DNA of 64,000 bases from an uncultured bacterium. Lineage in GTDB: Bacteria; Bacillota_I; Bacilli_A; RFN20; CAG-826. Made by a program: the position numbers and the translations under genes. The DNA is taken from contig CASFCL010000001.1 of the NCBI GenBank assembly GCA_949293255.1, positions 1,082 to 65,081 on the forward strand, given 5' to 3'. Of this stretch, positions 1,390 through 54,036 are shown piece by piece; the first letter of the stretch is position 1, and the number at the start of each line of letters is the position of its first letter. The notes under the pieces are model-generated. The model did not search any database. It was not told the DNA's origin and saw nothing but the letters and a program-made list of their open reading frames with translations.

Positions 1390-1408
1390 ATATTTACGGG
1401 GGTTAACG

Positions 1409-2077
1409 ATGTTTAGTGAAGATTTTACAAAACTTTCAGGTTCAGACCAAACTAGATTTGCAGAAGTCTGTAATAAATTATTATTAAAAGGATTTGTTGT
1501 CCGAGAATTTTATGATCCTCGTGAAAAAACAATGAGAAATAGCCAAGATTACAAATTTATTGAAAGATATTTTGATATTTTTGAAAACTATTTAAAGTTT
1601 AGCGGATGGACTTTAAAAAGAGATGAAAATCTCGGTGTTTACGCACTTTTTAACGATTATGAAGATAATAGAATTAGAATAGATAGAGAAGCTTCTGTTA
1701 TTTTAGTAACCTTAAGAAAAATTTATGATGATCAAAGACAAGAAAATCAAACATCTGCACAAAGTGGTCAAGCAATTTATCTCACAACAAACGGACTGAT
1801 TGGAGCTATGAAAATTTATGGTATTTTCATGCCAGGAAAAAGACTTACAGGTAGACTTGTAGGAAAATCTTTACGTTTCCTTGCTAACCACAACATTATT
1901 GCAAAAGTAAGTGGTAGTTATGATGAAGGTAATGTTAACTTCTTCATTTTACCATCAATAGTTTATGCTCTTGATAATGATAAAGTCGTTGCAATGAGTA
2001 ACGCACTTGATGAATTAAGAGCTAAAGAAAAAGAAAATCAAGGAGGACTTGTAAATGAAGACGCTTACCAAGGTTAA
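1409..2077 (+). CDS. MukE/JetB(MksE)-like small subunit (222 aa)
   Basis: Acidic 222-aa protein sandwiched between the kleisin-like ORF and the SMC-like ATPase. Its 3' end overlaps the ATPase start by 23 nt (translational coupling). Size and position fit DUF4194/MukE-like subunits; no motif proof. Confidence 0.4.
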   Translation: MFSEDFTKLSGSDQTRFAEVCNKLLLKGFVVREFYDPREKTMRNSQDYKFIERYFDIFENYLKFSGWTLKRDENLGVYALFNDYEDNRIRIDREASVILVTLRKIYDDQRQENQTSAQSGQAIYLTTNGLIGAMKIYGIFMPGKRLTGRLVGKSLRFLANHNIIAKVSGSYDEGNVNFFILPSIVYALDNDKVVAMSNALDELRAKEKENQGGLVNEDAYQG

Positions 2078-5000: not shown

Positions 5001-5426
5001 TTGAACGTCCAAAAGTTTACAGATTATCGTAGTTATTTAGATTTTGATTTAGTGGTGTATAATAATGATACTGGGGTTCAAGAACGTCTTTCGCAAATGA
5101 TTAGAAAGAAGTCAGGTGGTGAAACTCAAACACCATTCTATATCGCCGTACTTGCCTCATTTGCTCAACTATATCATGTTAATGATGCAGGAGAGTTAGG
5201 CAATACAACTCGTATAATAATTTTCGACGAAGCTTTCTCTAAGATGGATAAGGGAAGAATTAAAGAAGCAGTCAGACTTTTAAGAAAATTTGACTTGCAA
5301 GTTATTCTCTCAGCTCCATCAGATAAAGTTGGCGATATTTCCGAATTAGTTGACGAAACTTTAGTTGTTCTCCACGAGAAGAACTCAAGCTTTGTTAAAT
5401 TATATGCTCAAGACAAACTGAATTAA
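2055..5426 (+). CDS. MukB/JetC(MksB)-like SMC-family ATPase (1123 aa)
   Basis: AGGAGG RBS at 2041-2046, 8 nt before the ATG. N-terminal Walker A is LTGLNGSGKSTLIDALQVVLLGD. Middle ~700 aa is rich in E/K/L/Q heptad-like sequence (coiled coil). C-terminal head has the SGGE signature-like motif (KKSGGETQTPFYIAVLASF) and Walker B/D-loop IIIFDEAFSKMD. Confidence 0.7.
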   Translation: MKTLTKVKIINWHYFWNETLEVKPIVFLTGLNGSGKSTLIDALQVVLLGDTTGRYFNKAAMDKSARTLKGYLRGELSDTMDGGFKYLRNGRFTSYIALEFFDTLKEKSFTMGIVFDIFESGDEEHRFFFLNGPIPENQFINDRIPMDYKTLSCYLKDNEIPHEFFDSNTKYKDFLKQQFGGLKDKYFSLLKKATSFSPITDITTFITQYVCDPQADIEVGLLQENIQNYKRLEEEAKVIAARIEKLEAIEENYNRYKENLETFKIAQYIVERCELEGAKDKLDAYKRQIQSAKDRLLAIEIEVSDFRQKLADLDKKKIRLIQDKSSNSVAKLTDELNEQKQDITKEMQEIERNAKLVSNNLNNLCNSYLDAANSLTTNLSNFDLTILDEDETEDIQELLTECNHIVKVCMDFRTTYANDLPLLTKENLIEFGKELEPFRTKVASLAVSISRTCSQIMKKIETLQKEEASMKMGQKAYPAGLLTIKNRLEEELYNKYHKTIEVNIYCDLIDIRDLSWSDAIEGYLAPQKFNLFVAPKYYVDAYKILKEILREENFYGTALVDEERIIERNYQSEVGSLADEIKTTHDGARAYTNFLVGRLYKAKDVNDARQSGNGITKECDLYRNFSLSKISPRLYAQSYIGSNVDARFFEDKERQVKANQSNLNIFRKLNEIVSKATSLEALSSGNIENIFMLISKVSTLEGLKKSLDYIEEQLKQHDTTLLNSLDKRIAETEKEIESVNKKIEESLIEKGNLNKEIESLKNEKIVNEEENIRTIQDRLANSYDYNLVTEEASPLYEQRRAEGNTNIEILRDFQAQLSKLQYLVNNNTQALQRLRREYCNDYHLSFAVDAENNDQFDVELHDFRDVRLPEYQQKIEDSYHKATQQFRDDFINKLRGAIEDAEDQIENLNQALIESQFGRDSYRFTVTPSSTYRRYYDMLKDDIVLTSGQDETLFLEKYKDVMEDLFKQIVDTGDKNKASELSLNVQKFTDYRSYLDFDLVVYNNDTGVQERLSQMIRKKSGGETQTPFYIAVLASFAQLYHVNDAGELGNTTRIIIFDEAFSKMDKGRIKEAVRLLRKFDLQVILSAPSDKVGDISELVDETLVVLHEKNSSFVKLYAQDKLN

Positions 5427-11831: not shown

Positions 11832-12587
11832 ATGATTTTATGTGTAGATATTGGAAACACTTCTATTAAGTGTGGATTTTATGATGATGAAAAAATGGTC
11901 GATTTTTTCGCCATTGATTCATCAAGAGAAAGAAGTTCATACCAATATAGTGCAATTTTAAACACTTTTATAAAAGATAGTTTTGAAATTGATGGAGCTA
12001 TAATTTCAAGTGTTGTCCCTTCTTTAACAACGACTTTAAAACTTGCTTTACAAAGTTTTGTTAAAGGAAAAATTTTAATTTTAAATAAAAATTTAAAGAC
12101 AAAATTACCAATCAAAATTGATAATCCTAATGAACTTGGAAGCGATCTTTTAGCAGGAGCAATTGGAGCAAAAATGAAATATGAGCCTCCTTTTGTTGTC
12201 GCTGATTTAGGAACAGCAACTAAACTTTATGTTGTTTCAAAAGAAGGATTTTTTATTGGTGTAATTATTGGAGCAGGAATGGATGTATCTTTAAAAGCTT
12301 TAGTTGATAAGACATCTTTGCTTTTAGAAACACCTTTAGAAGCACCTTCAAAAATTATAGGAAAAAATACTAAAGATTCGATCCAATCGGGAATTGTCTA
12401 TGGTCAAGCTTACATGATTAGTGAGTTTGCTAGAAGAATTGAAAATGAACTTGGATATAAACTCACAAGAGTTTTAACAGGTGGATTTTCAAATATTATT
12501 AAACAAGAAGTGGTTTGTTTTAACCATGAACCAAATCTTGTTTTAGATGGTTTATACCATATTTATAAAATGAATATTGAGAGGTAG
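11832..12587 (+). CDS. coaX: type III pantothenate kinase
   Basis: MILCVDIGNTSIKCGFY N-terminus and ASKHA-fold length (251 aa) typical of CoaX/Bvg accessory factor family. GGAGG RBS. Confidence 0.85.
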   Translation: MILCVDIGNTSIKCGFYDDEKMVDFFAIDSSRERSSYQYSAILNTFIKDSFEIDGAIISSVVPSLTTTLKLALQSFVKGKILILNKNLKTKLPIKIDNPNELGSDLLAGAIGAKMKYEPPFVVADLGTATKLYVVSKEGFFIGVIIGAGMDVSLKALVDKTSLLLETPLEAPSKIIGKNTKDSIQSGIVYGQAYMISEFARRIENELGYKLTRVLTGGFSNIIKQEVVCFNHEPNLVLDGLYHIYKMNIER

Positions 12588-12589
12588 TT

Positions 12590-13240
12590 ATGAATAGAAA
12601 ATTTATAAAAGAAATTGTTATTGATGCATTATTTTTAGCTTTAATTGTTATTTTTTCATATGTTCCATATATTGGTTTAATTACAATTGGACCAATTTCT
12701 TTTACAACAATTCATTTAATTGTTTTAATTGCAGGAGTTTTATTTGGAACTAAAAAAGGAACTTTAGTAGGATTCTTTTTTGGATTGTTTTCACTTTTTG
12801 TTGCTTTAACTAGACCTGGAACTTTTGATTATTTTTGTATAAATCCATTTATTTCAATTTTACCTAGAGTATTATTTGGATTTTTGAGCGGTTTTATATT
12901 TGATTTAATTAAAAAATATGTTAAAGAGAAAACTTTCTATCTCATTTGTGGACCAGTTGCTTTTGGATTAACTTTAGTTCATACAACATTATTCTTATTA
13001 TCTTTATATTTATTTGGATTTATTGATATTTTAGGAATCTCAGGAGCAATGGGATTAACAAGTTTAATTGAAGGTGATGCAAATTCAGTATTTATTTCTT
13101 TAATTTCTTGGTTACTTATTGCTGGAGCTTTAGTTGAAGCAGGAGTTGCTTTTGTTGTTACTCCACTTGCTTATAAAGCTCTTAATAAAGTTGGATATAA
13201 ATATCCTGTCAAAGAACCAAAAGAAGTCGCAACTGAATAA
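12590..13240 (+). CDS. ECF transporter S component (candidate pantothenate-specific PanT)
   Basis: 216 aa, about 6 predicted TM helices, small hydrophobic S-component architecture. Start is 3 nt after the coaX stop. Confidence 0.55.
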   Translation: MNRKFIKEIVIDALFLALIVIFSYVPYIGLITIGPISFTTIHLIVLIAGVLFGTKKGTLVGFFFGLFSLFVALTRPGTFDYFCINPFISILPRVLFGFLSGFIFDLIKKYVKEKTFYLICGPVAFGLTLVHTTLFLLSLYLFGFIDILGISGAMGLTSLIEGDANSVFISLISWLLIAGALVEAGVAFVVTPLAYKALNKVGYKYPVKEPKEVATE

Positions 13241-22013: not shown

Positions 22014-24176
22014 ATGGAACAAACTAGAAGATTTAGAAAAGGTTTCATGGCAAAATGGTACATCATTGGTATTGTTTCCATTCTTGTCTGTTTATTCGTT
22101 TTATCCGTTACATTTATTGGTAGTGTCGCAGGATTAATTCCTGGACTTGGTGATTATAGTGCATCAATTCCTGGTGCCTATCCATTTGCAGGTGTTACTG
22201 AAGCAGTAAAGACTACACTTAAATCAATCCCATCATATTTCAGGGGTATTGAAAATGTTACCAATTGGGTTCCATTTGCAGCTCAAATGGGTGCATGGGT
22301 TATAGCATTCTTCGTTGTTGTTTATTTCTTTGCACATGTCATTACCTTTATTGCAAAAAGAAAATGGTCATATTTCATTCATAGTATTCTTGCTTTATGT
22401 ATGGTTTCTGGCCTTGTTGGAATTTATTTCTCATCATCTTATGTTTTAAGTGGTTATCAAACCAGTGAAGTTATCACTAATGGTGGTAATGTTACATATT
22501 TATATGTTAGAAGTCTTTTCTTAACAGGATTTGAAGGAACCATCGATTGGACAAGTACAAATGTTTGGATGTGTGTAATTTATTGGGCATTAGCAGTTAT
22601 CTTTGTAGTTGCTTTAATCCTTGCTGTTGTTTCCGTCTTTGCAGTTTCATCATATCCATGCAACTTTGCTAGAAAATATGTTAAAGGCAAAGCAAAAGAA
22701 GCAAAAGATAAGAAAGCCGAAGAAGAAGGTAGATATGGATATGGTCCAGAAGGTATGCAAGCCATTCCAGCAAATGGACAAGGTGTCTATGTTAATACCG
22801 GAAATGCAACTCCTTACGTTGTTCAATATTTCTATGGAAATCAACCAGCTGCTCCTGCAGCCGCTCCAGCAGAACCAGTTAAAGAAGCTGAAAAAGCTCC
22901 TGTAGCTGAAGCAAAACCTGGTTTAACAAAAGAAGACTTAAAAGAAGTTTTAAGTGAATTAATGGCAAAAAAAGAAGAAGATGAAAAAGCCAAAGCAGCT
23001 GCTTTAGCAGTCGCAGCACCTATTGCTGTTCCTGCACCAGCACCAGCACCAGCTCCAGTTGTTGAAGAAAAAGTTGATCCAGTCGAAGTTGCTCTTGAAG
23101 AAATTGAAAAACATTTCGATTTAGTCGATTATGAAGATGTAAAAACTTTCATTGCAGGTGAAGTTGATAAAGCCGCTCAAGAAGCTATTAGACAACTTGA
23201 AAAGCAAAGAGAAGAATTAGAAAAAGCAAAAGCTGCTGAAACAAAAGAAGAAGCAACAGTTGCTTATAAAGAAGAAAAACCAGTAGTCCAAGAAGAAAAA
23301 CCAGCACCAGTTGAAGAAGCTGTTAAAGTAGTTACTCCAATTGTTGTTGCTGTTCCTAGCGACTATCCTAGAGAAGCAAAAGCTCCAGTTGAAGAAGTTG
23401 AAGAAGTTAATGAAGAAGATATTAGATCATTAATTAAAGATGAAATTAGAAGTGCTTTTACTTCATTAAAAGAAGAAGCTCCTGAAGAAGAATGTGGAGA
23501 AGAAGCCGATGATATTCATATTGAATATGTTTATGAAGATGAATATGTTGAAGCTGCTCCAGTTGTAGAAGAAGTAGTTAAAGAAGAACCAGCTCCAGTT
23601 GCTGAACCTGTTAAAGAAGAAGCACCTGTAGTTGAAGAAAAACCTGTTGAAGTTGCTCCAGTTGTAGAAGAAGTTAAACCTTCTCCAGCTCCAAAAAGAG
23701 TTATTCCTCAAAAAGAAGTTAGAGGAAAAGAAGAAGCAATTGAAAAAGGTGAAATCGTTAAATTAGCATTCGATGAAAGAATGGTCAATGCTGAAGATGA
23801 TATTAAAGCTGCTTATCAATCATTAAAATCATTATTATTATCTTATGGATTAAATAGCCGTGTATCATCAACTGGCGATACATTTAGATTATCCAAAAAG
23901 ACATACTGCAAAGTTACATGCAGTGGTCAAGCATTAAAGATTTATCTTGCCTTAGATCCAAAATCATATGCAAATAGTGCAATTCCTGTAAATGATTCAT
24001 CTACAAAAGAAGCCTATAAGCAAATTCCATTAGGATTTAGAGTCAAATCGGATTTATCTTTAAGAAGAGCGAGAGATTTAATCATCGATTGCATGAACCA
24101 AAACGATCTTGTTCCAAATAAAGAATTTGTCGAAGAAGATTACGTTAAAGCTTTAAAAGACAATTTAAAGAAATAG
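22014..24176 (+). CDS. multi-pass membrane protein with E/K/P/V/A-rich disordered linker and conserved C-terminal domain (paralog 2)
   Basis: GGAGG RBS. About 5 N-terminal TM helices. Long acidic/Pro-Ala-rich linker. C-terminus (QSLKSLLLSYGLNSRVSSTGDTFRLSKKTYCKVTCSGQALKIYLALDPK..FRVKSDLSLRRARDLIIDCM) aligns with the paralog-1 C-terminus (NNLKSLLKSYGLNNRVANGGDTFRLHRVTYCKITIAGKALKLYLALDPN..FKVKSDLSYRRAEQLITDCM). Confidence 0.7.
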   Translation: MEQTRRFRKGFMAKWYIIGIVSILVCLFVLSVTFIGSVAGLIPGLGDYSASIPGAYPFAGVTEAVKTTLKSIPSYFRGIENVTNWVPFAAQMGAWVIAFFVVVYFFAHVITFIAKRKWSYFIHSILALCMVSGLVGIYFSSSYVLSGYQTSEVITNGGNVTYLYVRSLFLTGFEGTIDWTSTNVWMCVIYWALAVIFVVALILAVVSVFAVSSYPCNFARKYVKGKAKEAKDKKAEEEGRYGYGPEGMQAIPANGQGVYVNTGNATPYVVQYFYGNQPAAPAAAPAEPVKEAEKAPVAEAKPGLTKEDLKEVLSELMAKKEEDEKAKAAALAVAAPIAVPAPAPAPAPVVEEKVDPVEVALEEIEKHFDLVDYEDVKTFIAGEVDKAAQEAIRQLEKQREELEKAKAAETKEEATVAYKEEKPVVQEEKPAPVEEAVKVVTPIVVAVPSDYPREAKAPVEEVEEVNEEDIRSLIKDEIRSAFTSLKEEAPEEECGEEADDIHIEYVYEDEYVEAAPVVEEVVKEEPAPVAEPVKEEAPVVEEKPVEVAPVVEEVKPSPAPKRVIPQKEVRGKEEAIEKGEIVKLAFDERMVNAEDDIKAAYQSLKSLLLSYGLNSRVSSTGDTFRLSKKTYCKVTCSGQALKIYLALDPKSYANSAIPVNDSSTKEAYKQIPLGFRVKSDLSLRRARDLIIDCMNQNDLVPNKEFVEEDYVKALKDNLKK

Positions 24177-25462: not shown

Positions 25463-25555
25463 AAAAATATAATAAATCAAAAAAAATTAAAAAAATATAA
25501 AAAAGTTTGGTAAATTTTTGAAATTGCGACAATCTTGTTAGTAAAGGAGGAAAAA

Positions 25556-26635
25556 ATGAACTTTAAAATTTTAACTTTAATTTCTTTACTAACTATACCA
25601 TCTCTTGTTAATTCAAATGTCCCCACCCCTAAATCTGCATACAACTTTGAATTTATAACAAATGATACAAATTATGGTGGTCCTGATTTTTTAGATATTA
25701 GCGATTTTACTTTCAATAAAGATTCTTTTACAAATTATGGATTCGAATTGAAAATGGGTCTTCAAAGTCGATTTGTATATGGAACTATTTATTGTGATGT
25801 AGAAGTCGATAATGGATTAAACGAACATTATGATAAGAATACTACGCCATCTTTAGGTTTCTCAATTAATGCTAGAGATATAGTGCCGTTTCCAAAAGAA
25901 TATAGATTCTTAATTAATGGTACAATTTTTAAAGGACTAACCACATTTAAAGTAAATTTTGCTTTTAATTCAATGACTTCCTCCTTTTCATTTCATTTAA
26001 ATTCATATTACGATACAAGAATTCTTTTAGAAGAACCAGAAGGAAGAATTTATTATGAAGTTACCTATCAAAATTCAACAATTACTGAAAAATATGAGAC
26101 AATTTCAATTTTAGGAATCGATAAAGAGATGCATTTTGATCTTTATCGAAATGTTCCATTTTATGATTATATTTTCAATTACAGACTTTATGATAGTTCA
26201 AAATTTACGAATCGAATATTTTATTATGTTTATGATAAAGATAAATTATTGAGCAAAATTTTAAATTTATCACCAACTGAAGCTGATAATCATCGCGGCT
26301 TGGTTTTAGAAAAATTTAATGAAACTGATTCATCTTTTCAAGTTAGAACAGCAACTCAATTTTATTTAAATCCAAAAGATTATACGTTATCAAAATATTA
26401 TAAAGATGATCATCGACATAAAGTTAGAACAATGTATTTTCCTAAAGAATATTACGATGTTTTTTATGATACAACACACTATTTTGAGTTCGAAAAGTTC
26501 GGAAATTATCGAAAAAATGTCTACTTTAAATTTAGAATCCATATGGAGAAAGTATTTATTGAAAATTGTTTTGAAGTAATTGGAGAAAATAAGAAAGTAG
26601 GAGACGAAATTAGCTCAGAGGAGGTAATTTTATGA
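25556..26635 (+). CDS. secreted protein of unknown function (signal peptide; N/Y/F-rich)
   Basis: AAAGGAGG RBS 7 nt before the ATG at 25556. N-terminus MNFKILTLISLLTIPSLVNSNVP is a Sec signal peptide. No recognisable domain. Confidence 0.55.
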   Translation: MNFKILTLISLLTIPSLVNSNVPTPKSAYNFEFITNDTNYGGPDFLDISDFTFNKDSFTNYGFELKMGLQSRFVYGTIYCDVEVDNGLNEHYDKNTTPSLGFSINARDIVPFPKEYRFLINGTIFKGLTTFKVNFAFNSMTSSFSFHLNSYYDTRILLEEPEGRIYYEVTYQNSTITEKYETISILGIDKEMHFDLYRNVPFYDYIFNYRLYDSSKFTNRIFYYVYDKDKLLSKILNLSPTEADNHRGLVLEKFNETDSSFQVRTATQFYLNPKDYTLSKYYKDDHRHKVRTMYFPKEYYDVFYDTTHYFEFEKFGNYRKNVYFKFRIHMEKVFIENCFEVIGENKKVGDEISSEEVIL

Positions 26636-27039
26636 ACGTAGGAGTGGTACTTTTTTCATCAGGATTCATGATTTCTTTTTTAACTTTCTTTACGATTTCA
26701 ATTAAAGGAATGGGAGTTAATAGAATCATCAATAATATACCGTTAAGTGTTATAGAAAATTCAGTAATTTTTAATGGTGAAAATGATAATTTAAATGGTT
26801 ACTTTGATAAAGAAGTATTGGAATCAAATACAAAAAATTATTTAAATACTGCCTTAAAAGATAAGGTTCCAAGGTACAAAATTAGTTTTTTATATTTTTA
26901 CACGGATGAAGAAAATCAAATAAAGTTAGATCTGACAGATTACCCTGAAAGTGTACAAATTCATGTTTCAACTTGTTATTTTCAAAGTTATGAATGTCAA
27001 AGTTATTTAACGTTTTATATAGGAGAATTATTGGTATGA
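26632..27039 (+). CDS. small membrane-anchored protein (N-terminal TM), unknown function
   Basis: ATGA overlap with the upstream gene; single N-terminal hydrophobic helix; 135 aa. Confidence 0.45.
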   Translation: MNVGVVLFSSGFMISFLTFFTISIKGMGVNRIINNIPLSVIENSVIFNGENDNLNGYFDKEVLESNTKNYLNTALKDKVPRYKISFLYFYTDEENQIKLDLTDYPESVQIHVSTCYFQSYECQSYLTFYIGELLV

Positions 27040-28088
27040 ACGAAAATATTGTAGAATTTGTAGAATCATCATTTTTAAAACCGCTTTTAGAAATACCAAA
27101 TATAACAGATGTTTCATATAACGGAAGCGATATTTACTATGTAACAAATGATTACGGTAGGCAAAAATATCCTCAAAAAATAGAAGAAAAAATCATTTAT
27201 GATTTTTTAAGACAAATAGTGAATTTAACTGATAGTCAGTTTTCATTTTCTAAACCAATTTTAGATGTAAGTATTGGTCGATATCGTTTTAATGCGACTC
27301 ATTTTGCTATGACAAGAAAATTTAGAGAAAAAGCTATAAATTTCTCATTAAGAATTGGCTATGATGGGGTAAGAATTCATGAAGATGATGGATTTATTAA
27401 TAAAAAATGTCTTAAATTAGTCGATTTATTTATAAATAATAAGTTATCAATTGTTATTGGAGGAAAAACTGGATGTGGTAAGACTGAATTCCAAAAGTTT
27501 TTGATTTCAAGATTGAAAGATAATAGTAGAGTCATTGTAATTGATAATTTAAATGAAATTGAAAATGATGAATTTAAACCTAATTTAGATATTCAAACAT
27601 GGGTTGTAAATGAAATGCATGAAGGTTTTACTTTCGATAATTTCATTAAAAATGCTTTAAGATCTCATCCAGATTGGATTGTTTTATCAGAATCTAGAGG
27701 AAAAGAAATGTTAAGTATTTTAAATAGTGCAATGTCAGGGCATCCAACAATTACAACATTGCATACTAAAGACTGTAAATCAATTTATTCTAGAATGGCT
27801 AGAATGTGTTTACAAAGTGGTGATAATTTAAAGTATAAAGAAGTTTTAGAAGATATTTTTGAACATTTTAAATTAGCTATTTATGTAGCAAGAAGTGAAG
27901 ATGTAGAAACTGGTAAAATAACCCGTTACATCGAATCAATTTCAACTAATTATAAGGGTGTAATTACACTAATTTATACCTATCCAAATAAATATAAAAG
28001 GTTACCAAAACAATTTTTAGATATTTTAAATTTAACGTCAACTGAAAAATCTTTATTTAATCAGGAGTGGGTAAATGAAGAAAAATAA
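27036..28088 (+). CDS. TadA/CpaF/VirB11-family secretion ATPase
   Basis: Walker A IVIGGKTGCGKTEF, Asp box VIVIDNLNEIE, ESRGKEM (GE.RG.E box) and His box GHPTITTLHT. ATG at 27036 overlaps the upstream stop (ATGA) and is preceded by AGGAGA. Confidence 0.75.
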   Translation: MNENIVEFVESSFLKPLLEIPNITDVSYNGSDIYYVTNDYGRQKYPQKIEEKIIYDFLRQIVNLTDSQFSFSKPILDVSIGRYRFNATHFAMTRKFREKAINFSLRIGYDGVRIHEDDGFINKKCLKLVDLFINNKLSIVIGGKTGCGKTEFQKFLISRLKDNSRVIVIDNLNEIENDEFKPNLDIQTWVVNEMHEGFTFDNFIKNALRSHPDWIVLSESRGKEMLSILNSAMSGHPTITTLHTKDCKSIYSRMARMCLQSGDNLKYKEVLEDIFEHFKLAIYVARSEDVETGKITRYIESISTNYKGVITLIYTYPNKYKRLPKQFLDILNLTSTEKSLFNQEWVNEEK

Positions 28089-28863
28089 CGTCAGTTTAAT
28101 CATATATTTCATTATTAGTTTAGTTATATCGGTTTTATTTTGGTATGTAACAAACGATTTAATCTTAGCTCTAGTACTTTTTGTTATAGCAATTGCTGTT
28201 CATATGTTTATTTTTAAAAAGGAAAAAGAGTCTAGTTTAGTGATTTCTAGAGCAAAAGAAGCAATAACATTTATCAATAATTTTATTATCACTTTAAGTA
28301 TTAAAAAGAATGTTTTATCTACTTTTAAAAGTGTCAGTGAATCTTTTTCTGATACCTTAAAACAACAAGTAGAGCTAATTGATCACCTTAATGTTGATGA
28401 AAAAATTGTTTATTTAGCGAAATATTTTAAAGTTGATATCTATAAAGTATTCTTAAAAATTATCGACCAATATAATTTCAATGGTGGAGATATTTTAAAT
28501 ATTTCGCAATTATTAATGTATGATAGTCGAAAAATTGATGAATCAATCAATGAATATACATATGTAAGTAGAAGAAAACTGATTGAATTTATTTCATTAT
28601 GGGCATTAACGTTTTCTGTTTTAATCATATTAAAAGTGGCTCTTGGTGATTTTTTCGACCAAATTGTTAGTATGGATTTTTTTGCAATTTCAATCTTTGG
28701 TTTCAATTTAGTGTTCTTATTATCTTATTACTTATTTATGGCTAAATTTTTCAATATTAATTATATAAAAGGAGAATTTAAAGATGACGAAAAAGCTCAA
28801 AAACTTAATAAACGAAGTTGGCTTAAGTTACAAAAACGAGATCTCAAAACTAATTGCGATTAA
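28075..28863 (+). CDS. TadB/TadC-like platform membrane protein (single T2SS-F-like domain)
   Basis: N-terminal TM pair, about 130-aa cytoplasmic helical domain, then C-terminal TM helices. This is the half-size GspF architecture typical of TadB/TadC. Start overlaps the ATPase stop. Confidence 0.5.
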   Translation: MKKNNVSLIIYFIISLVISVLFWYVTNDLILALVLFVIAIAVHMFIFKKEKESSLVISRAKEAITFINNFIITLSIKKNVLSTFKSVSESFSDTLKQQVELIDHLNVDEKIVYLAKYFKVDIYKVFLKIIDQYNFNGGDILNISQLLMYDSRKIDESINEYTYVSRRKLIEFISLWALTFSVLIILKVALGDFFDQIVSMDFFAISIFGFNLVFLLSYYLFMAKFFNINYIKGEFKDDEKAQKLNKRSWLKLQKRDLKTNCD

Positions 28864-29458
28864 TTTATTATTCCTTTTAGCAATCGCTAGTATAGTCTTA
28901 TTCTTTTACAATTTATTACTTGTAATTGTTATTGTCTTTTTAGCAGTAGTTTTTGATTATCGGTATTTTTATCGATATTCACAAATGAAAGAGAAGATTA
29001 GAGAGAAACAAATTGACGAATTTATCGAGATATTTTCATATTTTAGAATTTATGTAAGTAATAACGAAAATGTATATACAGCTTTAAAAAATATATTACA
29101 GTTTGCATCTTATAATACAAAAGAAAGATTACAAACTTTGATCAACGAAATTGATGAAGATAAAAGCTTAGCCCCATTTGTTAAATTTTCAGATTATTAT
29201 AAAAATAAAACAATAGAAGAAGTAATGGTTTCTTTATATGAGATGATTTGTGAAGGAAATGAGTTAATCTACCTAAATCAATTTATTAGAGTATTTGAGG
29301 AATTTAAAACTCAAAGAAATAATGATAGTAAAACTAAACGATATAAGGTTTTTGATTATCTAACTTTGTTTAGTTTAGGAGGTAGCGGAATATTAATGAT
29401 AATTCTTGTTTTTGGAATTATTAATTTATTAGGAGATATGAATTTTAATGGGTTCTAA
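28784..29458 (+). CDS. second TadB/TadC-like platform membrane protein
   Basis: Same TM, helical domain, TM layout (224 aa). Its ORF overlaps the previous one by 80 nt in another frame. Confidence 0.45.
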   Translation: MTKKLKNLINEVGLSYKNEISKLIAINLLFLLAIASIVLFFYNLLLVIVIVFLAVVFDYRYFYRYSQMKEKIREKQIDEFIEIFSYFRIYVSNNENVYTALKNILQFASYNTKERLQTLINEIDEDKSLAPFVKFSDYYKNKTIEEVMVSLYEMICEGNELIYLNQFIRVFEEFKTQRNNDSKTKRYKVFDYLTLFSLGGSGILMIILVFGIINLLGDMNFNGF

Positions 29459-29792
29459 AATTGGATTAATTTTATCAGTATTTTTCTTATTTATCGTATT
29501 TTTATTTGGAGCAGATTTAATTTGTATTCAACTTAATTATGCTTCGATGGATTCAATGACAACATTAATCAGTTATAACATTTCAAAAAATGGAAAAATT
29601 ACTGATTCGTTGAAGACCTATGTAAAAAATAATATTGGTGCAGATCTTTATAGCGCAAGCTCTGAAGACAAAATATATCAAACTGGCGATTCTTTTGAAT
29701 ACTACCTAAAAAAGAATTACGAGCCATTAGTTATAAGTGAGTCTATGGAACTTACAATAAAAAGATATGCAGTAATAAAAATTTATAATTAA
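29448..29792 (+). CDS. small N-terminal-TM protein (possible TadE-like pseudopilin)
   Basis: 114 aa; hydrophobic N-terminus MGSKIGLILSVFFLFIVFLFG then a soluble domain. Overlaps the upstream gene by 11 nt. Confidence 0.35.
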   Translation: MGSKIGLILSVFFLFIVFLFGADLICIQLNYASMDSMTTLISYNISKNGKITDSLKTYVKNNIGADLYSASSEDKIYQTGDSFEYYLKKNYEPLVISESMELTIKRYAVIKIYN

Positions 29793-29807
29793 AGGAGGAT
29801 TTAAAAA

Positions 29808-29993
29808 ATGTCAGAAATTAAAGGTCAATTATTAGGAGTAGTATTAGTTGTTGCTATTTTTGGAGCAATTGGAGGCTTATTATATGCCGCTTTTCAAAAC
29901 GCTGCCAAATCAACAGCAAGCAAAATTGAAGAAACTCCAACATATTCAATGTCAGAATATAGTGTCAGCAATAGTGACTTATTAAGATATTAA
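29808..29993 (+). CDS. 61-aa pilin-like protein (Flp-size; charged N-terminus + hydrophobic helix)
   Basis: AAAGGAGG RBS. MSEIKGQLLGVVLVVAIFGAIGGLLYAAFQNAAKSTASKI has a short polar leader ending in Gly, a 20-aa hydrophobic helix, then a short polar tail. Last gene before the terminator. Confidence 0.4.
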   Translation: MSEIKGQLLGVVLVVAIFGAIGGLLYAAFQNAAKSTASKIEETPTYSMSEYSVSNSDLLRY

Positions 29994-30052
29994 TTTTTTA
30001 ATATTTTAGAAATTATTTAGTATAAAAATAGTAGTTTTCTCTATTATTTAAG

Positions 30053-30087
30053 AACAAAAAAAGACCATTTATACAAATGGTCTTTTG
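30053..30087. terminator. bidirectional rho-independent terminator (strongest for the minus-strand tRNA transcript)
   Basis: 10-bp stem aagaccattt/aaatggtctt with a 4-nt loop. Flanked by an A-run on one side and TTTT on the other. Confidence 0.6.
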
Positions 30088-30096
30088 CGTTTAACT

Positions 30097-30173
30097 TGGT
30101 GACCTATACGGGATTCGAACCCATGAATGCATGCGTGAAAGGCATGTGAGTTAAGCCACTTCTCCAATAGGCC
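30097..30173 (-). tRNA. tRNA-Glu (anticodon TTC)
   Basis: Reverse complement reads GGCCTAT..CATGC-CTTTCAC-GCATG..GGGTTCGAATCCCGTATAGGTCACCA. It has a 7-bp acceptor stem, TTC anticodon in a 7-nt loop, GTTCGAATC T-loop and encoded CCA. Confidence 0.85.
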
Positions 30174-30178
30174 AAGTT

Positions 30179-30253
30179 TGGCGCTGACTATAGGACTCGA
30201 ACCTACAACCGATCGGTTAACAGCCGATTGCTCTACCATTGAGCTAAGTCAGC
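30179..30253 (-). tRNA. tRNA-Asn (anticodon GTT)
   Basis: Reverse complement reads GCTGACTTAGCTCAATGGTAGAGCAATCGG-CTGTTAA-CCGAT..GGTTCGAGTCCTATAGTCAGCGCCA. It has a 7-bp acceptor stem, GTT anticodon and encoded CCA. Confidence 0.85.
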
Positions 30254-30328: not shown

Positions 30329-30553
30329 TTAATCTAACTTTTTGGAGATTAGGTCAAGAAGACTACCAACAGTTTTTAAGTCTTTGGTTTCTTCTGCTGA
30401 GAATGTAACATCGTATTTGTCTTCTAAGTCTAAAATAAATTCAACTACATCGAGTGAATCTAAGCCATAATCAGCTAAAGTTGCATCTCTATTTATTTCT
30501 GAAATATTAAGTTTTGTTTTAATTAAATTTTCAATTTCTTCAAGTTTATTCAT
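30329..30553 (-). CDS. acpP: acyl carrier protein
   Basis: 74 aa; LADYGLDSLDVVEFILDLE contains the DSL phosphopantetheine attachment serine motif; acidic. Confidence 0.85.
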   Translation of the reverse strand: MNKLEEIENLIKTKLNISEINRDATLADYGLDSLDVVEFILDLEDKYDVTFSAEETKDLKTVGSLLDLISKKLD

Positions 30554-30650
30554 AAAAAACTCCTCGGAGAAATTTTAACATATATTTAATTAAAAAGTAA
30601 TAAAAATACTAAAAATGGTTGTGATATAATTTTAAGCGGAGGTGCAATTT

Positions 30651-31952
30651 ATGATTGATCATAAAATGGAACTTAATTCTGAACAAATTGAAATTTTAGA
30701 AGGCAAACAAGGTGAGACAATGCGTAAAATGCTCGAGACATTAGTCTTATTTGGAGATATTTTTGACGCAAAACGTTTAGTTAAAGTAACACATAGTGAA
30801 GGACATCTTGTAACATCTTTTGGAATTCCTTTATTAAAACCTCTTTTCAAAACAATGGAAGAGATTAATAAAGATGGTATTAAAGCAGAAGGTGGATTTA
30901 CATTAGATCCAAGACCTATTGATTACGAAAATGTTAAATGTAATATATTAGAAAAAATTGTTTTCAATAAAATCTTATATGGAAAACAAAAAGACTATGA
31001 AGAACAACTTTTAAAAGCTGGTTTAACTGATAGTGATAGTTTTTCATGTACATGTTATTTAAAACAATGTGGCAATAGACCAAATAAAGGTGACATTCTT
31101 TCATGGGCAGAATCAAGTGCAGTTGTTTTTGCAAATTCTGTTTTAGGTGCAAGATGCAACAGAAATAGCGGAATGCTTGATTTATTTGGTTCAATTATCG
31201 GATATGTACCTGAATTTGGTTTACTTTTAGATGAAAATAGAAAAGCTGATTGGGTAATTGAAGTAAAAACAACAAAAATTCCAGAAGCACAAATTTTAGG
31301 AAGTGCAATTGGGTTAAAAGTAATGGAAGATGTTCCATACATCGTAGGTTTAGATAAATTTATCGGAACTGAATTAGATGATAATGCTGAAGATTATTTA
31401 AAAGATATGGGCGCAGCAAGTGCTAGTAATGGAGCAGTTGGTTTATTCCATGTCGAAAATTTAACTCCTGAAGCAAAAGAGCAAGGTAAGTCATTAATTA
31501 AAGAAAATGCAAAACATTATGTAATTGATGATGCTGAACTTGAAAGAGTTTATAAATCTTATCCAAATATGTGGAAGAAAAAAGATGCAAAACCAAGATT
31601 ATGTTTTATTGGTTGCCCACATCTTTCATTAAATCAATTAATATTATGGCACAATAGAATCATTAACGGACTTAAAGAAGAAAATAAAAAGAAAGTTTCC
31701 TGCCAATGTGTTCTTACAACAGCTCCAAAGGTAAAGAAAGAATTTATAGCAAAATATCCAGAATTATTTAATGATTTAGACAAAGCTGGAGTAAAAATTG
31801 CTTCAATTTGTCCATTAATGTATACAAATAATCCATTAGTTCATGGAAAAGCAATTTTTACAAATTCAAATAAATTAAGAACTTACTCAATGGCAAGATA
31901 TTTTAAAGATGAAGATATTGTAAAACTTTTCTGTGGTAAGGAGGTCAAATAG
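30651..31952 (+). CDS. aconitase-X-like (DUF521-type) hydro-lyase large subunit, Cys-rich
   Basis: About 433 aa from the ATG at 30651 (GGAGG RBS 9 nt upstream). More than 10 Cys, including FSCTCYLKQCG and CFIGCPH. Followed by a ~147-aa partner ORF with 4-nt spacing. Two-subunit layout and sizes fit AcnX large/small subunits. The assignment is from memory of family patterns, not a search. Confidence 0.4.
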   Translation: MIDHKMELNSEQIEILEGKQGETMRKMLETLVLFGDIFDAKRLVKVTHSEGHLVTSFGIPLLKPLFKTMEEINKDGIKAEGGFTLDPRPIDYENVKCNILEKIVFNKILYGKQKDYEEQLLKAGLTDSDSFSCTCYLKQCGNRPNKGDILSWAESSAVVFANSVLGARCNRNSGMLDLFGSIIGYVPEFGLLLDENRKADWVIEVKTTKIPEAQILGSAIGLKVMEDVPYIVGLDKFIGTELDDNAEDYLKDMGAASASNGAVGLFHVENLTPEAKEQGKSLIKENAKHYVIDDAELERVYKSYPNMWKKKDAKPRLCFIGCPHLSLNQLILWHNRIINGLKEENKKKVSCQCVLTTAPKVKKEFIAKYPELFNDLDKAGVKIASICPLMYTNNPLVHGKAIFTNSNKLRTYSMARYFKDEDIVKLFCGKEVK

Positions 31953-31953
31953 T

Positions 31954-32397
31954 ATGAAGGAATATAAAGGTAGAGTTATTGCTAAAGGTTCATTTGTTGG
32001 TGAAGCATGTGTTTCTCATGGTGGATTCAATACTTTAGCAAGTTTCCAAAAATCAGCATTAATGAATAAGAAGAATGTTATTGTTAGCGATCAAAATAAC
32101 AAAGACTTATTTGGAGTTGATATTACTAACAAAATATTATGTTTACCTATTACAATTGGTTCAACAACTGGTGGACTTGTAATTCAGACTGTTTGTGACA
32201 TGAAAATTAATCCAAAAGCCTTCTTATTTTCTGAAACTATCGATTCATTAGCTGCTAGTGGAATTGTTTTAGCAAAAGTTTGGCAAAACTCTGACGTAAT
32301 TTGTATTGATGAATTAGGTAAAGAGTTTTTAGATACTGTTAAAACTAACGATAAATTAGAAATTAAAGAAGATGGTACCGTCATTATTTTGGATTAA
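31954..32397 (+). CDS. aconitase-X-like small (swivel, DUF126-type) subunit
   Basis: AAGGAGG RBS. KGRVIAKGSFVGEACVSHGGFN and LCLPITIGSTTGGLVIQ with an ASGIVLA tail resemble the G.S.G..L..P...GST.G pattern of DUF126. The likely start is the ATG at 31954; the ORF-track start at 31933 is an upstream alternative. Confidence 0.4.
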   Translation: MKEYKGRVIAKGSFVGEACVSHGGFNTLASFQKSALMNKKNVIVSDQNNKDLFGVDITNKILCLPITIGSTTGGLVIQTVCDMKINPKAFLFSETIDSLAASGIVLAKVWQNSDVICIDELGKEFLDTVKTNDKLEIKEDGTVIILD

Positions 32398-32483
32398 GTG
32401 CGGATTACTTAAACATAATTTGACAACATACTATATTTTTTAATAAAATATAGTCAGGAAATAGAAATATTTCTTGACTCGAA

Positions 32484-32512
32484 AGAGTGCCTGCGGGCAT
32501 TCTTATTTTTTT
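32484..32512 (+). terminator. rho-independent terminator/attenuator between the AcnX-like operon and rimP
   Basis: Stem agagtgcc/ggcattct (8 bp, one G-U pair) with a 4-nt loop, followed by TATTTTTTT. Confidence 0.5.
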
Positions 32513-32524
32513 AAGGGGGGATAA

Positions 32525-32974
32525 ATGGTAAATTTAGACGAATTAAAAACCTTAATTAACGAGATGCTTAGCCAAGATGGATATGAACTTTATTCACTTA
32601 GCTATAGAAAAGGTAATCTCGAAATAATAGTTGATAGATTCGAACCAATTAGTCTTGATGATATTACAGTTGTAAGTCAAAAAATTTCCGATTTTCTTGA
32701 TACTCATGAATTTTGTGAAGAATCTTACACATTAAATGTATCCTCATTAGGAGCTGAAAAACCTATCAAACTAGAAAATTTAAATAAATATATTGGCTCG
32801 TATGTAGCATTACATTTATCTAATCCCTATAAAGGTGAAAATAATTTAGAAGGTAAAATTGAAAACATTGAAAATGAAACATTGACTCTTGTTTATAAAA
32901 ATAAAACCAGAGATGTTAAATGTTTAATACCTTTAAAAGATATTGATAAAGCAAAACTTTCAATAAAGATTTAG
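32525..32974 (+). CDS. rimP: ribosome maturation factor RimP
   Basis: N-terminus LINEMLSQDGYELYSLSYRKGNLEIIVDR matches RimP. It sits immediately upstream of nusA, the conserved position. Confidence 0.85.
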   Translation: MVNLDELKTLINEMLSQDGYELYSLSYRKGNLEIIVDRFEPISLDDITVVSQKISDFLDTHEFCEESYTLNVSSLGAEKPIKLENLNKYIGSYVALHLSNPYKGENNLEGKIENIENETLTLVYKNKTRDVKCLIPLKDIDKAKLSIKI

Positions 32975-36890: not shown

Positions 36891-37241
36891 ATGGCAAACA
36901 GAAATAAAAGAATACAAACTGTTATTGCTAAAGATGTAAGAGATATTCTTCAATTTGAAATTAGAAATGAAAATATAGGATTTTTAACAGTAACTGATGT
37001 CGATGTAAGTAGCGACTATAGTTATGTAAAAATATTTGTAAGTTTTATTCAAGATGAAGAAAAGAACTTTGAGAAACTTTGTAAAACTAAAGGTTTTGTA
37101 AGATCATCTTTAGCAAAAAAGATCAATTTAAGAAGAACTCCTGAAATCGAATTTGTATTAGATAGAGGATATTCTTATGAATCCAGAATTGATCAATTAT
37201 TAAAAAAAGAAACTAAGACATTAGAGGATATTAAAAAATAA
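36891..37241 (+). CDS. rbfA: ribosome-binding factor A
   Basis: 116 aa; RIQTVIAKDVRDILQFEIRNENIGFLTVTDVDVS matches the RbfA KH-like fold. Downstream of infB. Confidence 0.85.
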   Translation: MANRNKRIQTVIAKDVRDILQFEIRNENIGFLTVTDVDVSSDYSYVKIFVSFIQDEEKNFEKLCKTKGFVRSSLAKKINLRRTPEIEFVLDRGYSYESRIDQLLKKETKTLEDIKK

Positions 37242-38409
37242 ATCCTCTTTTTCTTTTAATTATTATATCTATTACATTTCCTTGAAGCTGGTAATTTTCA
37301 TCAAAAACCTTGCAGAATCCAATTTCTTTTAAGAAATTTTCATTTTTACTAGTTATGAATAATTTTAAAGGATTATATTTTTCATATAATGATAAATAAA
37401 AATCAAAAATAAAATATGCAAAATCTTTGTAGTCTAAATAGTTGTAGGAGTGGATAATGAAGGTCCTTTCATCTTTTGAAAAAGTGATAAAACCAACAAG
37501 TTCATTGTCTTTATATAAATGAATTCTCTTATAATTTTCTTCATCAGTTGAGTCACTAAAATAATTCTCAGTATGATTTTTGTTAAACTTAGTTTCTTTA
37601 ATATATTCATTTATATTCAAAGTTTCTTTATAAAATAAATTTTCTTTTTGGCCTTCAACTTTTATTTCTTCATGCATATAAAATAAATCTTCTTTTTCAT
37701 TATTTGATAGCATTGTTAGGAAATTATCGATACTTTCAGGATATTTTTTATTAAAGTTTGTAATGATTTCTTTGATATCTGCTCTTTTAGTTGCTCCATC
37801 GTTAGGACAATTACTTGAAATGAATGGAATATTTTCTTCTTTAATTGCTCGTTTAATTATTTTTTCATCACATAAAATTAAAGGACGAATAAAAGTGATG
37901 TTTTCATTGGATAAAAACATCTTTGGACTAAAAGTTGCAATTCTAGCTCCATAGATCTCATTTAAAAATAAAGTTTCAATTGCATCGTTTTTATGATGAG
38001 CAAAAGCGACTTTGTTACAGTTATAATTATGTGCTTCTTTATTGATTATTGCCTTTTTCATTCTTGAACAAATCGAGCAAGGAAGGTGTGGGAGTTTTTG
38101 TAATTCTTGTTGCTTTTTAAGCACTTGATAAACCATTTTTCCATCGGAAATTTTTAAATTTAAGTCGAGTTTTGCAAGGAAATTGATAATTTCTGAAGGG
38201 TTAAAGTTATCAAATCCTAAATCAATCATGATAGGAACGATGGTAAAATCAAGTTTCGAAAATTTTTTATATAAAGATAAAGCGTAGATTAAAACCATAC
38301 TATCTTTTCCTCCGCTAACGCCTATTGCAATAGTGTCGTTATTTTGGAAAAAATTGTATGTTTTGTCGGCTCTTTTAATACTTGCTAAAATTTGACGAAT
38401 TGCTTTCAT
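37231..38409 (-). CDS. TtcA-family PP-loop tRNA thiolase-like protein with ~130-aa C-terminal extension
   Basis: PP-loop IGVSGGKDSM. CSICSRMKK...AFAHHKNDAIETLFLN matches the E. coli TtcA CSLCSRLRR...ALGHHRDDILQTLFLN block. 392 aa against about 310 for TtcA. Convergent 11-nt overlap with the rbfA 3' end. Confidence 0.7.
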   Translation of the reverse strand: MKAIRQILASIKRADKTYNFFQNNDTIAIGVSGGKDSMVLIYALSLYKKFSKLDFTIVPIMIDLGFDNFNPSEIINFLAKLDLNLKISDGKMVYQVLKKQQELQKLPHLPCSICSRMKKAIINKEAHNYNCNKVAFAHHKNDAIETLFLNEIYGARIATFSPKMFLSNENITFIRPLILCDEKIIKRAIKEENIPFISSNCPNDGATKRADIKEIITNFNKKYPESIDNFLTMLSNNEKEDLFYMHEEIKVEGQKENLFYKETLNINEYIKETKFNKNHTENYFSDSTDEENYKRIHLYKDNELVGFITFSKDERTFIIHSYNYLDYKDFAYFIFDFYLSLYEKYNPLKLFITSKNENFLKEIGFCKVFDENYQLQGNVIDIIIKRKRGFIF

Positions 38410-53268: not shown

Positions 53269-54036
53269 ATGTGGAAATATTTTAAAGTCGTAATGAGGCT
53301 TATACCTGTTATTGTTTATAGTTATTTTGCTTGGATTATTAAATACAGTAGACATCCAGAAAAATATCCATTTGAAAAAAGATTTGAAAGAATTCAAAAA
53401 CTTATTAGAAAGGTTTTGAAGGCTTTTGGAGTTAAATATTATCTTCATGGAGAAGATGTTTTAGCTAAAGTTGGCGATAAAAGTTGCTTAATTGTTTGTA
53501 ATCACATCTCTTTTATCGATCCTTTATTTTTTATTGCAATTGCAAAAAGACCTTTTTCAGTTGTTGCTAAAGTTGAAACTAAAAAAATGCCACTTGTTGG
53601 AAGAATTGTTATGGCTTTAGAGGGTGAATTTATTGAAAGAGATAACTTAAAACAAGAATTAAAATGTTTTATTAGAGTTCAAAAAAGACTTGAAGAAAGC
53701 AATTTAGATTATGTAATTTTCCCAGAAGGCACCAGACATCAAGACTACAACATGGGTGAATTTCATCATGGAAGTTTCCGCTGTGCTGTAAAAACTAACC
53801 ATCCAATTTTAGTCTGTGCAATTAGTGGTTCACAAAAAGTTTTAGATAGTAAAATTAATAAAAAACATTATCCAATCGATTTTTCTTATATAGATTATAT
53901 TGAAAGTGAAAACTACCAAGATTTAACAACAAAAGATATCGCTTTTAAAGCTCAAAGTGAAGTTAAAGAAACTTTAGATGAGATGATTGTTATAAACGAA
54001 AGAAGATATAAAGAATTAAATAAGATTAAAAAATAG
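53269..54036 (+). CDS. plsC: 1-acyl-sn-glycerol-3-phosphate acyltransferase
   Basis: Acyltransferase motifs CNHISFID (HX4D) and FPEGTR. 255 aa. Confidence 0.8.
   Translation: MWKYFKVVMRLIPVIVYSYFAWIIKYSRHPEKYPFEKRFERIQKLIRKVLKAFGVKYYLHGEDVLAKVGDKSCLIVCNHISFIDPLFFIAIAKRPFSVVAKVETKKMPLVGRIVMALEGEFIERDNLKQELKCFIRVQKRLEESNLDYVIFPEGTRHQDYNMGEFHHGSFRCAVKTNHPILVCAISGSQKVLDSKINKKHYPIDFSYIDYIESENYQDLTTKDIAFKAQSEVKETLDEMIVINERRYKELNKIKK

Follow-up and report, generated by a model that had tools for sequence, protein, structure and literature searches.

A two-subunit AcnX-type hydro-lyase that fits the uncharacterised bacterial Type-II subclasses, and the flavoenzyme gene that accompanies it in most relatives

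The AcnX locus and its genes

We analysed a stretch of 64,000 nucleotides (hereafter the window) from an uncultured gut bacterium of the class Bacilli (contig CASFCL010000001.1, positions 1,082 to 65,081), which carries at positions 30329-32397 two genes for a hydro-lyase of the AcnX family and, in divergent orientation, a gene for an acyl carrier protein (ACP). The G+C content of the window is low (about 29%). The large, catalytic AcnX subunit (433 aa; 30651-31952, plus strand) matches PF04412 (DUF521) with E=1e-90 and 304.8 bits (cut-off 31.5), and the alignment spans positions 1-384 of the 400 profile positions. The small subunit (147 aa; 31954-32397, plus strand), which represents the swivel domain 4, matches PF01989 (DUF126) with E=5.6e-11 (42.6 bits against 27). 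The ACP (74 aa; 30329-30553, minus strand) matches PF00550 with E=2.2e-13 (50.7 bits against 20.8) and has Ser36 in a DSL motif (GLDSLD at residues 33-38, within GLDSLDVVEF). All three open reading frames (ORFs) are intact, and the Pfam matches are significant at the level of the database and not due to chance. A first-pass annotation, made from the sequence alone, had already described the minus-strand ACP with its DSL motif and the succession of a 433-aa and a 147-aa protein on the plus strand, and these calls could be reproduced.

The start codons of the ACP and the large subunit are separated by an intergenic region of 97 nt (30554-30650). Direct reading of this region reveals an extended -10 element (TGATATAAT, 30622-30630, plus strand), followed by a GGAGG ribosome-binding site (30638-30642, plus strand) located 8 nt ahead of the ATG of the large subunit. 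A consensus scan for two hexamers missed the extended -10 element, and no Rfam element was found within the 97 nt. In this species, the AcnX pair is preceded by a promoter-like element and a ribosome-binding site of its own. The small subunit also has a ribosome-binding site of its own, the previously noted AAGGAGG, which was read at 31938-31944 (plus strand), still within the 3' end of the gene for the large subunit. The gap between the two genes had been given as 4 nt but is actually 1 nt, as the TAG stop codon of the large gene (31950-31952) and the ATG at 31954 are separated by a single T. Translational coupling from the large to the small subunit is likely.

A consensus scan detected a GC-rich, terminator-like hairpin with a T-run (32483-32504, plus strand), 86 nt past the stop codon of the small subunit and about 20 nt before rimP (start at 32525, plus strand). 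It is preceded by a near-consensus promoter (TTGACA-18-TAAAAT, 32420-32449, plus strand). The hairpin may represent the end of the AcnX transcript, an attenuator in the leader of rimP-nusA-infB, or both. On the other side, just beyond the ACP, there are genes for tRNA-Glu(UUC) and tRNA-Asn(GUU) (30097-30253, minus strand; ARAGORN, Rfam RF00005).

Family membership and fold

The first-pass annotation had assigned the two proteins to DUF521/DUF126 (AcnX). This assignment is secure because profile hidden Markov models, sequence matches to solved structures and the fold agree. Both Pfam matches are above the gathering score, and the G.S.G/GST.G pattern which had been associated with the swivel subunit is seen in the small protein as G-S-T-T-G-G. 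When compared to all sequences in PDB, the large subunit has its best match to TK1249 from Thermococcus kodakarensis (7cnr_A, E=1e-37; 1.2e-52 when a family profile is used). The cis-3-hydroxy-L-proline dehydratases (Agrobacterium, Pseudomonas-type) come second with E about 1e-19 (1.7e-19). The small subunit matches TK1248 (7cnr_B, E=6.1e-5; family profile 2.5e-10) and AF0055. Serine dehydratase and fumarase subunits, considered beforehand as possible better matches, did not displace the AcnX proteins.

An AlphaFold2 model of the large subunit, calculated with homologs, is confident (pLDDT 89.8, pTM 0.89). In a Foldseek search, the model has its top match to 7cnr_A (E=3.3e-29, template-modelling (TM) score 0.86, target-normalised, 29% identity). 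The Agrobacterium enzyme (7cnq_A) reaches a TMq of 0.80, while isopropylmalate isomerase and aconitase are far behind (TM about 0.5).

Conservation of the catalytic core

To compare residues, we used pairwise and profile alignments as well as a MAFFT alignment that includes 56 full-length representatives from the wider family. The catalytic core was found to be invariant across 27-32 sequences, down to 54% identity. In the large subunit, C133 and C322 align with C110 and C283 of the Thermococcus enzyme (Tk), and E154-S155-S156 corresponds to Tk E129-S130-S131. Because the C-terminal 83 residues of the large subunit gave no match when aligned directly to the Thermococcus chain, the remaining equivalences were routed through the Agrobacterium enzyme (At). 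C387 aligns with At C508, K408 with At K530 and Y412 with At Y534; these three At residues are equivalent to Tk C342, K361 and Y365 (PMC8184944). In the small subunit, S70-T71 corresponds to Tk Ser62 and Thr63 and is found, together with Thr72, in the invariant sequence T-I-G-S-T-T-G-G.

The 433-aa protein had been called Cys-rich. It has 11 cysteines in 433 residues, but only C133, C322 and C387 are invariant and likely to be cluster ligands. Cys510, which serves the Agrobacterium enzyme as third [2Fe-2S] ligand, is replaced by Leu389, and Cys322 is present; the ligand pattern is therefore of the cubane type found in Type-II enzymes. There are also invariant residues which are specific for this family: H52, D86 and R410 in the large subunit and D46-Q47-N-N49 in the small subunit. 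The proteins from the window keep every family-invariant residue. Because of this, and because of the promoter-like element and ribosome-binding sites described above, the AcnX pair looks functional.

Landmark residues of the known AcnX activities

AcnX was the last branch of the aconitase superfamily to gain functions, and only two are known. Type-I and Type-IIa enzymes are cis-3-hydroxy-L-proline dehydratases, and the archaeal Type-IIb enzyme is a mevalonate-5-phosphate dehydratase (Watanabe et al. 2021, PMC8184944). These labels had been swapped in the first-pass annotation, where phosphomevalonate dehydratases were called Type IIa. Bacterial AcnX of Types IIc-IIf are uncharacterised and have "no landmark residue" of either activity; neither a function nor a linkage to a flavoenzyme is reported for them (PMC8184944).

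The Thermococcus enzyme binds the 5-phosphate of its substrate by the backbone of G48-V49-S50 and by the side chains of N53 and N79 (PMC8184944). In the MAFFT alignment, the Thermococcus phosphate loop A47-G48-V49-S50-Y51 is replaced by V54-T55-S56-F57-G58, and the phosphate-binding Asn79 by the invariant Asp86, while the equivalent of Asn53 is uncertain. Position 410 is an invariant Arg in our family and Ala in archaeal-type sequences, and His52 is also invariant. Archaeal phosphomevalonate dehydratase-like representatives in the same alignment share G-V-S-Y, Asn at position 86 and Ala at position 410.

The landmarks for hydroxyproline are replaced as well, with V54, F57, L28 and T71 at the positions of Asp203, Ile206, Trp35 and Cys71. 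Only Thr72 is shared, which in the Agrobacterium enzyme contacts the ring nitrogen (PMC8184944). The equivalog model for hydroxyproline dehydratase, NF051439, gives 143.9 bits for the large and 24.1 bits for the small subunit, with a cut-off of 700. As the landmarks of both known activities are missing, the protein from the window fits, judged by its sequence, the description of the uncharacterised bacterial Type-II subclasses (IIc-IIf: bacterial, two-subunit, both landmark sets missing).

Distribution of close relatives

At least 8000 homologs were returned by a word-indexed search, with an identity of 66% or more for each of the best 120 clusters. An exhaustive search of 50%-identity representatives gave 1700 AcnX-like clusters at E<=1e-3, with 165 of them at E<=1e-30. 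Close relatives (55-81% identity) were found in records labelled Bacilli, Clostridia, Ruminococcaceae and Tissierellaceae, and also in Coriobacteriia (Parolsenella, Atopobium), Spirochaetales and Candidatus Saccharicenans. Anaerobic digesters are among the sources of these genomes, as are samples of human, horse, deer, chicken and rumen origin; the subclass is widespread in anaerobes from guts and digesters. The mean column identity of the large subunit is 67% over 32 relatives, which is unusually high for this taxonomic spread.

A sister subfamily with 43% identity and the same D86/R88/R410 signature occurs at L128:6991-11160, where it is flanked by a divergent LysR regulator on one side and an MFS transporter on the other. 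The surrounding cluster, which includes aromatic ring-cleavage genes, codes for LigB-type dioxygenases, a ring hydroxylase, hydrolases and an aldehyde dehydrogenase. This single example would be consistent with a broader clade of enzymes for organic acids taken up from outside, and it may give a hint at the substrate class of this wider clade.

An Fe-S flavoenzyme is the recurrent neighbour of AcnX in relatives

ORFs were called in all loci that had been fetched and were then clustered. Among the resulting 125 loci, 44 are from genomes and 80 from metagenomes. Only two neighbours are recurrent, the small subunit (112 loci) and a flavoenzyme (65 loci); the next cluster occurs in 8 loci. A protein of 685-780 aa is encoded beside AcnX in 33 of the 41 informative genome loci (8 are without it and 3 more end short of the position), and the gene nearly always immediately precedes that of the large subunit, in the same orientation. 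Of the metagenome loci, 19 are uninformative; in the other 61, the gene is directly upstream in 27 cases, at another place in the locus in 6, and absent within the flank in 28. Two of these 33 metagenome matches reach an identity of only about 30% and may represent paralogs. The genes are tightly spaced, with a median of 15 nt between the flavoenzyme stop codon and the start of the large subunit, and with gaps of -4 to +3 nt between large and small subunit in 94 of 111 loci.

In the flavoenzyme, an OYE-type FMN domain (PF00724, 2e-55) is combined with a pyridine-nucleotide-disulfide oxidoreductase domain (PF07992, 2.5e-33). The His191/His194/Tyr197 triad, the cysteines C381-x2-C384-x3-C388 with C412, and two GxGxxG motifs are conserved. 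The nearest solved relatives are 2-naphthoyl-CoA reductase and FadH, but the protein remains below every NCBIfam equivalog cut-off, the best being long-form BilR (339 against 750) and BaiCD (330 against 825). It is thus an uncharacterised member of the Fe-S flavoenzyme ene-reductase family, in which the vast majority of gut members are of unknown function (2024 review, PMC11574389). In the literature library that was searched, we found no paper linking AcnX to an ene-reductase.

Other neighbours provided no clue to the substrate: PFL with its activase, a ferredoxin-reductase-like protein, an M20 peptidase, an iron-containing alcohol dehydrogenase, TetR, an ECF S-component and an SDR occur in 1-4 loci each. 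Neither the AcnX pair nor the three-gene operons were found to be preceded by a riboswitch or other RNA. One AcnX/flavoenzyme operon has an FMN riboswitch (L028:12914-13028, minus strand, 85 bits) about 1.2 kb downstream, located on the other strand in front of a different, 236-aa gene. It is probably the leader of a riboflavin transporter, and its nearness to an FMN enzyme may be due to chance. The richest context of AcnX is seen in a cultured strain, Clostridium sp. Cult3 (L031:7724-15150), where a divergent TetR precedes the operon. The genes that follow it code for a second Fe-S flavoenzyme paralog, which is shorter (642 aa), and for an iron-containing alcohol dehydrogenase.

The species from the window does not share this arrangement. 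Upstream of the AcnX pair, the window and two conspecific contigs (L001, L002) have the ACP and the two tRNAs where relatives have the flavoenzyme gene. Beyond these, there is a Tad-like pilus operon in the window and an IS110 transposase in L001. The IS110-family transposase (L001:128-1102, minus strand) replaces the pilus genes from about 29000-30100 of the window, upstream of the tRNA/ACP/AcnX block. A strain-level rearrangement has therefore occurred exactly where relatives carry the flavoenzyme gene.

The acyl carrier protein

The first-pass annotation had pointed out the divergent arrangement of ACP and AcnX. A tblastn search found an ACP homolog near AcnX only in the conspecific contigs L001 and L002 and in 0 of about 122 other loci. 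The arrangement is therefore species-specific and carries no functional signal. The ACP had been described as stand-alone, and indeed there are no fab genes in the 64-kb window. Its score is below the NCBIfam cut-offs for acpP (TIGR00517, 50.6 against 70.45), which fits a divergent lineage. A PlsC-type acyltransferase is encoded 23 kb from the ACP (53269-54036). The window also codes for a type III pantothenate kinase (CoaX) which adjoins an ECF-transporter S-component (11832-13240, plus strand). The latter two look like a pantothenate-salvage pair, consistent with a stand-alone ACP which needs 4'-phosphopantetheine. We judge the ACP to lie outside the AcnX unit; it is probably the housekeeping ACP of a reduced genome that makes phospholipids from scavenged fatty acids.

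Proposed reaction and alternative explanations

We consider it fairly probable that the AcnX pair belongs to an uncharacterised bacterial Type-II subclass which converts a polar beta-hydroxy-carboxylate to a 2-enoate, and that the flavoenzyme reduces this enoate in relatives. The substrate would be neither mevalonate 5-phosphate nor cis-3-hydroxy-L-proline, because the distal pocket differs (H52, T55-S56-F57-G58, D86 and R410 in the large subunit; D46-Q47-x-N49 and T72 in the small subunit). The invariant residues of mixed charge (His52, Asp86, Arg88/Lys and Arg410; Asp46, Gln47, Asn49 and Thr72 in the small subunit) suggest that the distal group is polar or charged. By homology, a [4Fe-4S] cluster would be bound through C133, C322 and C387, and the carboxylate of the substrate would be held by Thr71 of the small subunit together with Ser155, Lys408 and Tyr412 of the large subunit. 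The beta-hydroxyl group would be coordinated to the cluster, with the help of Glu154, and Ser70 of the swivel domain would abstract the alpha-proton to yield the 2-enoate and water.

In most relatives, the AcnX genes are second and third in an operon which is led by the gene for a putative NAD(P)H-dependent FMN/[4Fe-4S]/FAD flavoenzyme of the enoate-reductase/FadH family. The predicted pathway would lead from the hydroxy-acid via the enoate to the saturated acid, and would be a CoA-independent, reductive electron sink. Compared to NAD+/NADH, enoate/saturated-acid couples are far more positive, which favours the reductive direction. In the species from the window, the reductase may be encoded elsewhere in the genome or may have been lost. 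More tentatively, AcnX and the flavoenzyme might form an undescribed CoA-independent "dehydrate-then-reduce" module, an NAD(P)H-consuming electron sink for a common metabolite in many anaerobes of guts and digesters (Bacilli, Clostridia, Coriobacteriia and others). It would represent a third AcnX specificity and would here be split or reduced to the dehydratase.

Several points weigh against this proposal. The residue equivalences rest on sequence alignments, and the loop at residues 52-60 is placed differently by phmmer and MAFFT. A tblastn search of the 64-kb window with three flavoenzymes gave a best E of 0.61 and revealed neither a flavoenzyme nor a remnant or distant copy. The flavoenzyme is also missing from about 36 of 102 informative related loci, and coupling is therefore common without being obligatory, and putative for this genome. 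Several members of the flavoenzyme family (FadH, NCR, BaiCD) use CoA thioesters, and no CoA ligase or transferase is conserved near AcnX and the flavoenzyme in relatives; we therefore only infer that the enoate is a free acid. Finally, no transporter, regulator or riboswitch is consistently linked to AcnX across the loci.

The most serious alternative is that the AcnX pair works without an ene-reductase here and in about a third of the informative loci, for example as a stand-alone hydratase or dehydratase which replaces a fumarase-like or other central hydro-lyase, and that the linkage in relatives reflects a different or additional use. This is compatible with the same chemistry. The flavoenzyme-less loci just mentioned, which include this species, have no such gene within 8-10 kb, and yet all invariant residues are kept in these copies. 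An identity of 55-81% across phyla is as expected for a core metabolic enzyme, and the pair has its own promoter-like element here. However, no other partner recurs, the tight operon spacing in the majority of loci argues for consecutive steps, and such genomes may contain an unlinked copy of the reductase. We consider a stand-alone function unlikely, though well worth keeping in mind.

The first-pass annotation had suspected either an archaeal-type mevalonate route or a novel hydro-lyase, and it is the latter that the evidence favours. A bacterial phosphomevalonate dehydratase with Type-IIb function, which would mark an archaeal-type mevalonate pathway, is suggested by TK1249 being the closest solved structure in the sequence search (1e-37 against 1.7e-19 for the hydroxyproline enzyme) as well as the top Foldseek match, and by the same two-subunit build with three cysteines as [4Fe-4S]-type ligands. 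The identity to TK1249 is only about 29-33%, however, the phosphate-binding residues are lost, and the acidic Asp86 should disfavour a phosphate. The window has no gene for mevalonate kinase, and neither a GHMP kinase, UbiD/UbiX (the decarboxylase type expected for this route) nor isopentenyl phosphate kinase was found in it or as a recurrent neighbour in the 125 loci; the partner in relatives is a reductase and not a decarboxylase. We have rejected this reading on the defining residues and the gene content, and it is very improbable. Slightly less probable still is a dehydratase for cis-3-hydroxy-L-proline, although it is the best NCBIfam match by name, Thr72 is shared and collagen peptides are supplied in the gut habitat. 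It was rejected because of the replaced landmarks and the NF051439 score. Cys510 is replaced and the Type-II Cys322 is retained, none of the neighbours is a gene for proline or hydroxyproline metabolism, and an imine product needs no ene-reductase partner. Least probable of all is a functional unit of ACP and AcnX with an ACP-tethered or ACP-derived substrate and a shared divergent promoter region. The two start codons are close, the ACP diverges from canonical AcpP, and some relatives of the flavoenzyme act on thioesters. But AcnX binds a free carboxylate via Thr/Ser/Lys/Tyr, all of which are retained, the region is rearranged between strains (IS110 in L001), and PlsC, CoaX and the ECF S-component fit a housekeeping ACP. 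The linkage was rejected as the tblastn search of all loci found the ACP in conspecific contigs only.

The AcnX family and the existence of uncharacterised bacterial subclasses have been published, and a characterisation of the subclasses without landmarks has been called for (PMC8184944). The window provides a clean, intact member of such a subclass. What is new is the residue signature which separates it from both known activities (H52, T-S-F-G, D86 and R410; D-Q-x-N in the small subunit) and the conserved pairing with an Fe-S flavoenzyme in relatives. Together, they make the function directly testable, as they predict a two-enzyme assay (hydroxy-acid plus NAD(P)H consumption), and they point to a reductive pathway that would be widespread among anaerobes of the gut. 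The analysis also does away with the annotation of a bacterial mevalonate pathway of the archaeal type, which is tempting but wrong.

Other genes of the window

At its start, the window codes for JetA (which runs off the window start), JetB and JetC, resembling a type-I Wadjet system (1-5426, plus strand; PADLOC JetA1/JetB1/JetC1 with E down to 0; Pfam JetA, DUF4194/MksE and SbcC-like). As glgC follows only 20 nt after the Jet genes, there is no JetD downstream, and these genes represent either an incomplete Wadjet system or an MksBEF-like condensin. The Tad/Flp-like pilus operon (25535-29993, plus strand) is found just upstream of the tRNAs and the ACP. It codes for a T2SSE ATPase (26994-28088), two TadB/C-like membrane proteins, several small hydrophobic proteins and a 61-aa pilin-like ORF (29808-29993, plus strand). 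Most of its products have no Pfam match.

A predicted membrane protein of 720 aa (22014-24176, plus strand) has a long low-complexity middle region which is rich in Ala, Pro, Glu, Val and Lys; its gene coincides with a local GC content of 0.35, compared to about 0.29 elsewhere. In a PP-loop ATPase of 392 aa (PF01171, TtcA/TilS-like; 37231-38409, minus strand), the domain covers only the N-terminal part, and the C-terminal 150 residues or so have no match. The other genes have housekeeping or defence functions and include glgC/D/A, leuS, trmB, tyrS, tdk, rimP-nusA-ylxR-infB-rbfA, ribF and rpsO, as well as genes for ABC exporters, pnp, RNase J, FtsK, a pullulanase-type amylase, rsmB, pyrimidine-nucleoside phosphorylase, an ABC-F protein and alaS.

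Comparison with known systems

Like a housekeeping AcpP, the ACP from the window has 74 aa, the PP-binding fold and the DSL serine, but it is below the equivalog cut-offs and lies outside any plsX-fab-acpP cluster.

The Type-IIb enzymes TK1249/TK1248 (PDB 7CNR/7CNS) and Aeropyrum pernix PMDh likewise consist of two subunits (domains 1-2-3 plus the swivel domain 4). The enzyme from the window shares their fold (TM 0.86), the three-Cys cubane ligand pattern, the swivel Ser/Thr, Glu-Ser-Ser and Lys/Tyr. It differs in having T-S-F-G instead of G-V-S-Y, Asp86 instead of Asn79, and the additional invariant residues His52 and Arg410. Its large subunit is about 45 residues longer and has an insertion around residues 90-112. 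Moreover, the host is bacterial, and the conserved neighbour in relatives is an ene-reductase rather than mevalonate-pathway genes.

With the hydroxyproline dehydratase, the enzyme has the superfamily fold (TMq 0.80), the catalytic Ser70, the equivalent of Thr72 and the Lys/Tyr carboxylate clamp in common. In contrast to that enzyme, it lacks the Cys510 ligand (Leu389) as well as Asp203, Ile206, Trp35 and Cys71, its subunits are not fused, it is far below the equivalog cut-off, and it is not accompanied by a hydroxyproline gene cluster.

The flavoenzyme of the relatives (685-780 aa) shares the FMN barrel, the His/His/Tyr triad, the [4Fe-4S] motif and the Rossmann domains for FAD and NAD(P)H with FadH, 2-enoate reductase, BaiCD, BaiH, BilR and 2-naphthoyl-CoA reductase. 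Unlike these, it has no bai, bil or CoA-activation genes nearby and is uniquely paired with an AcnX dehydratase.

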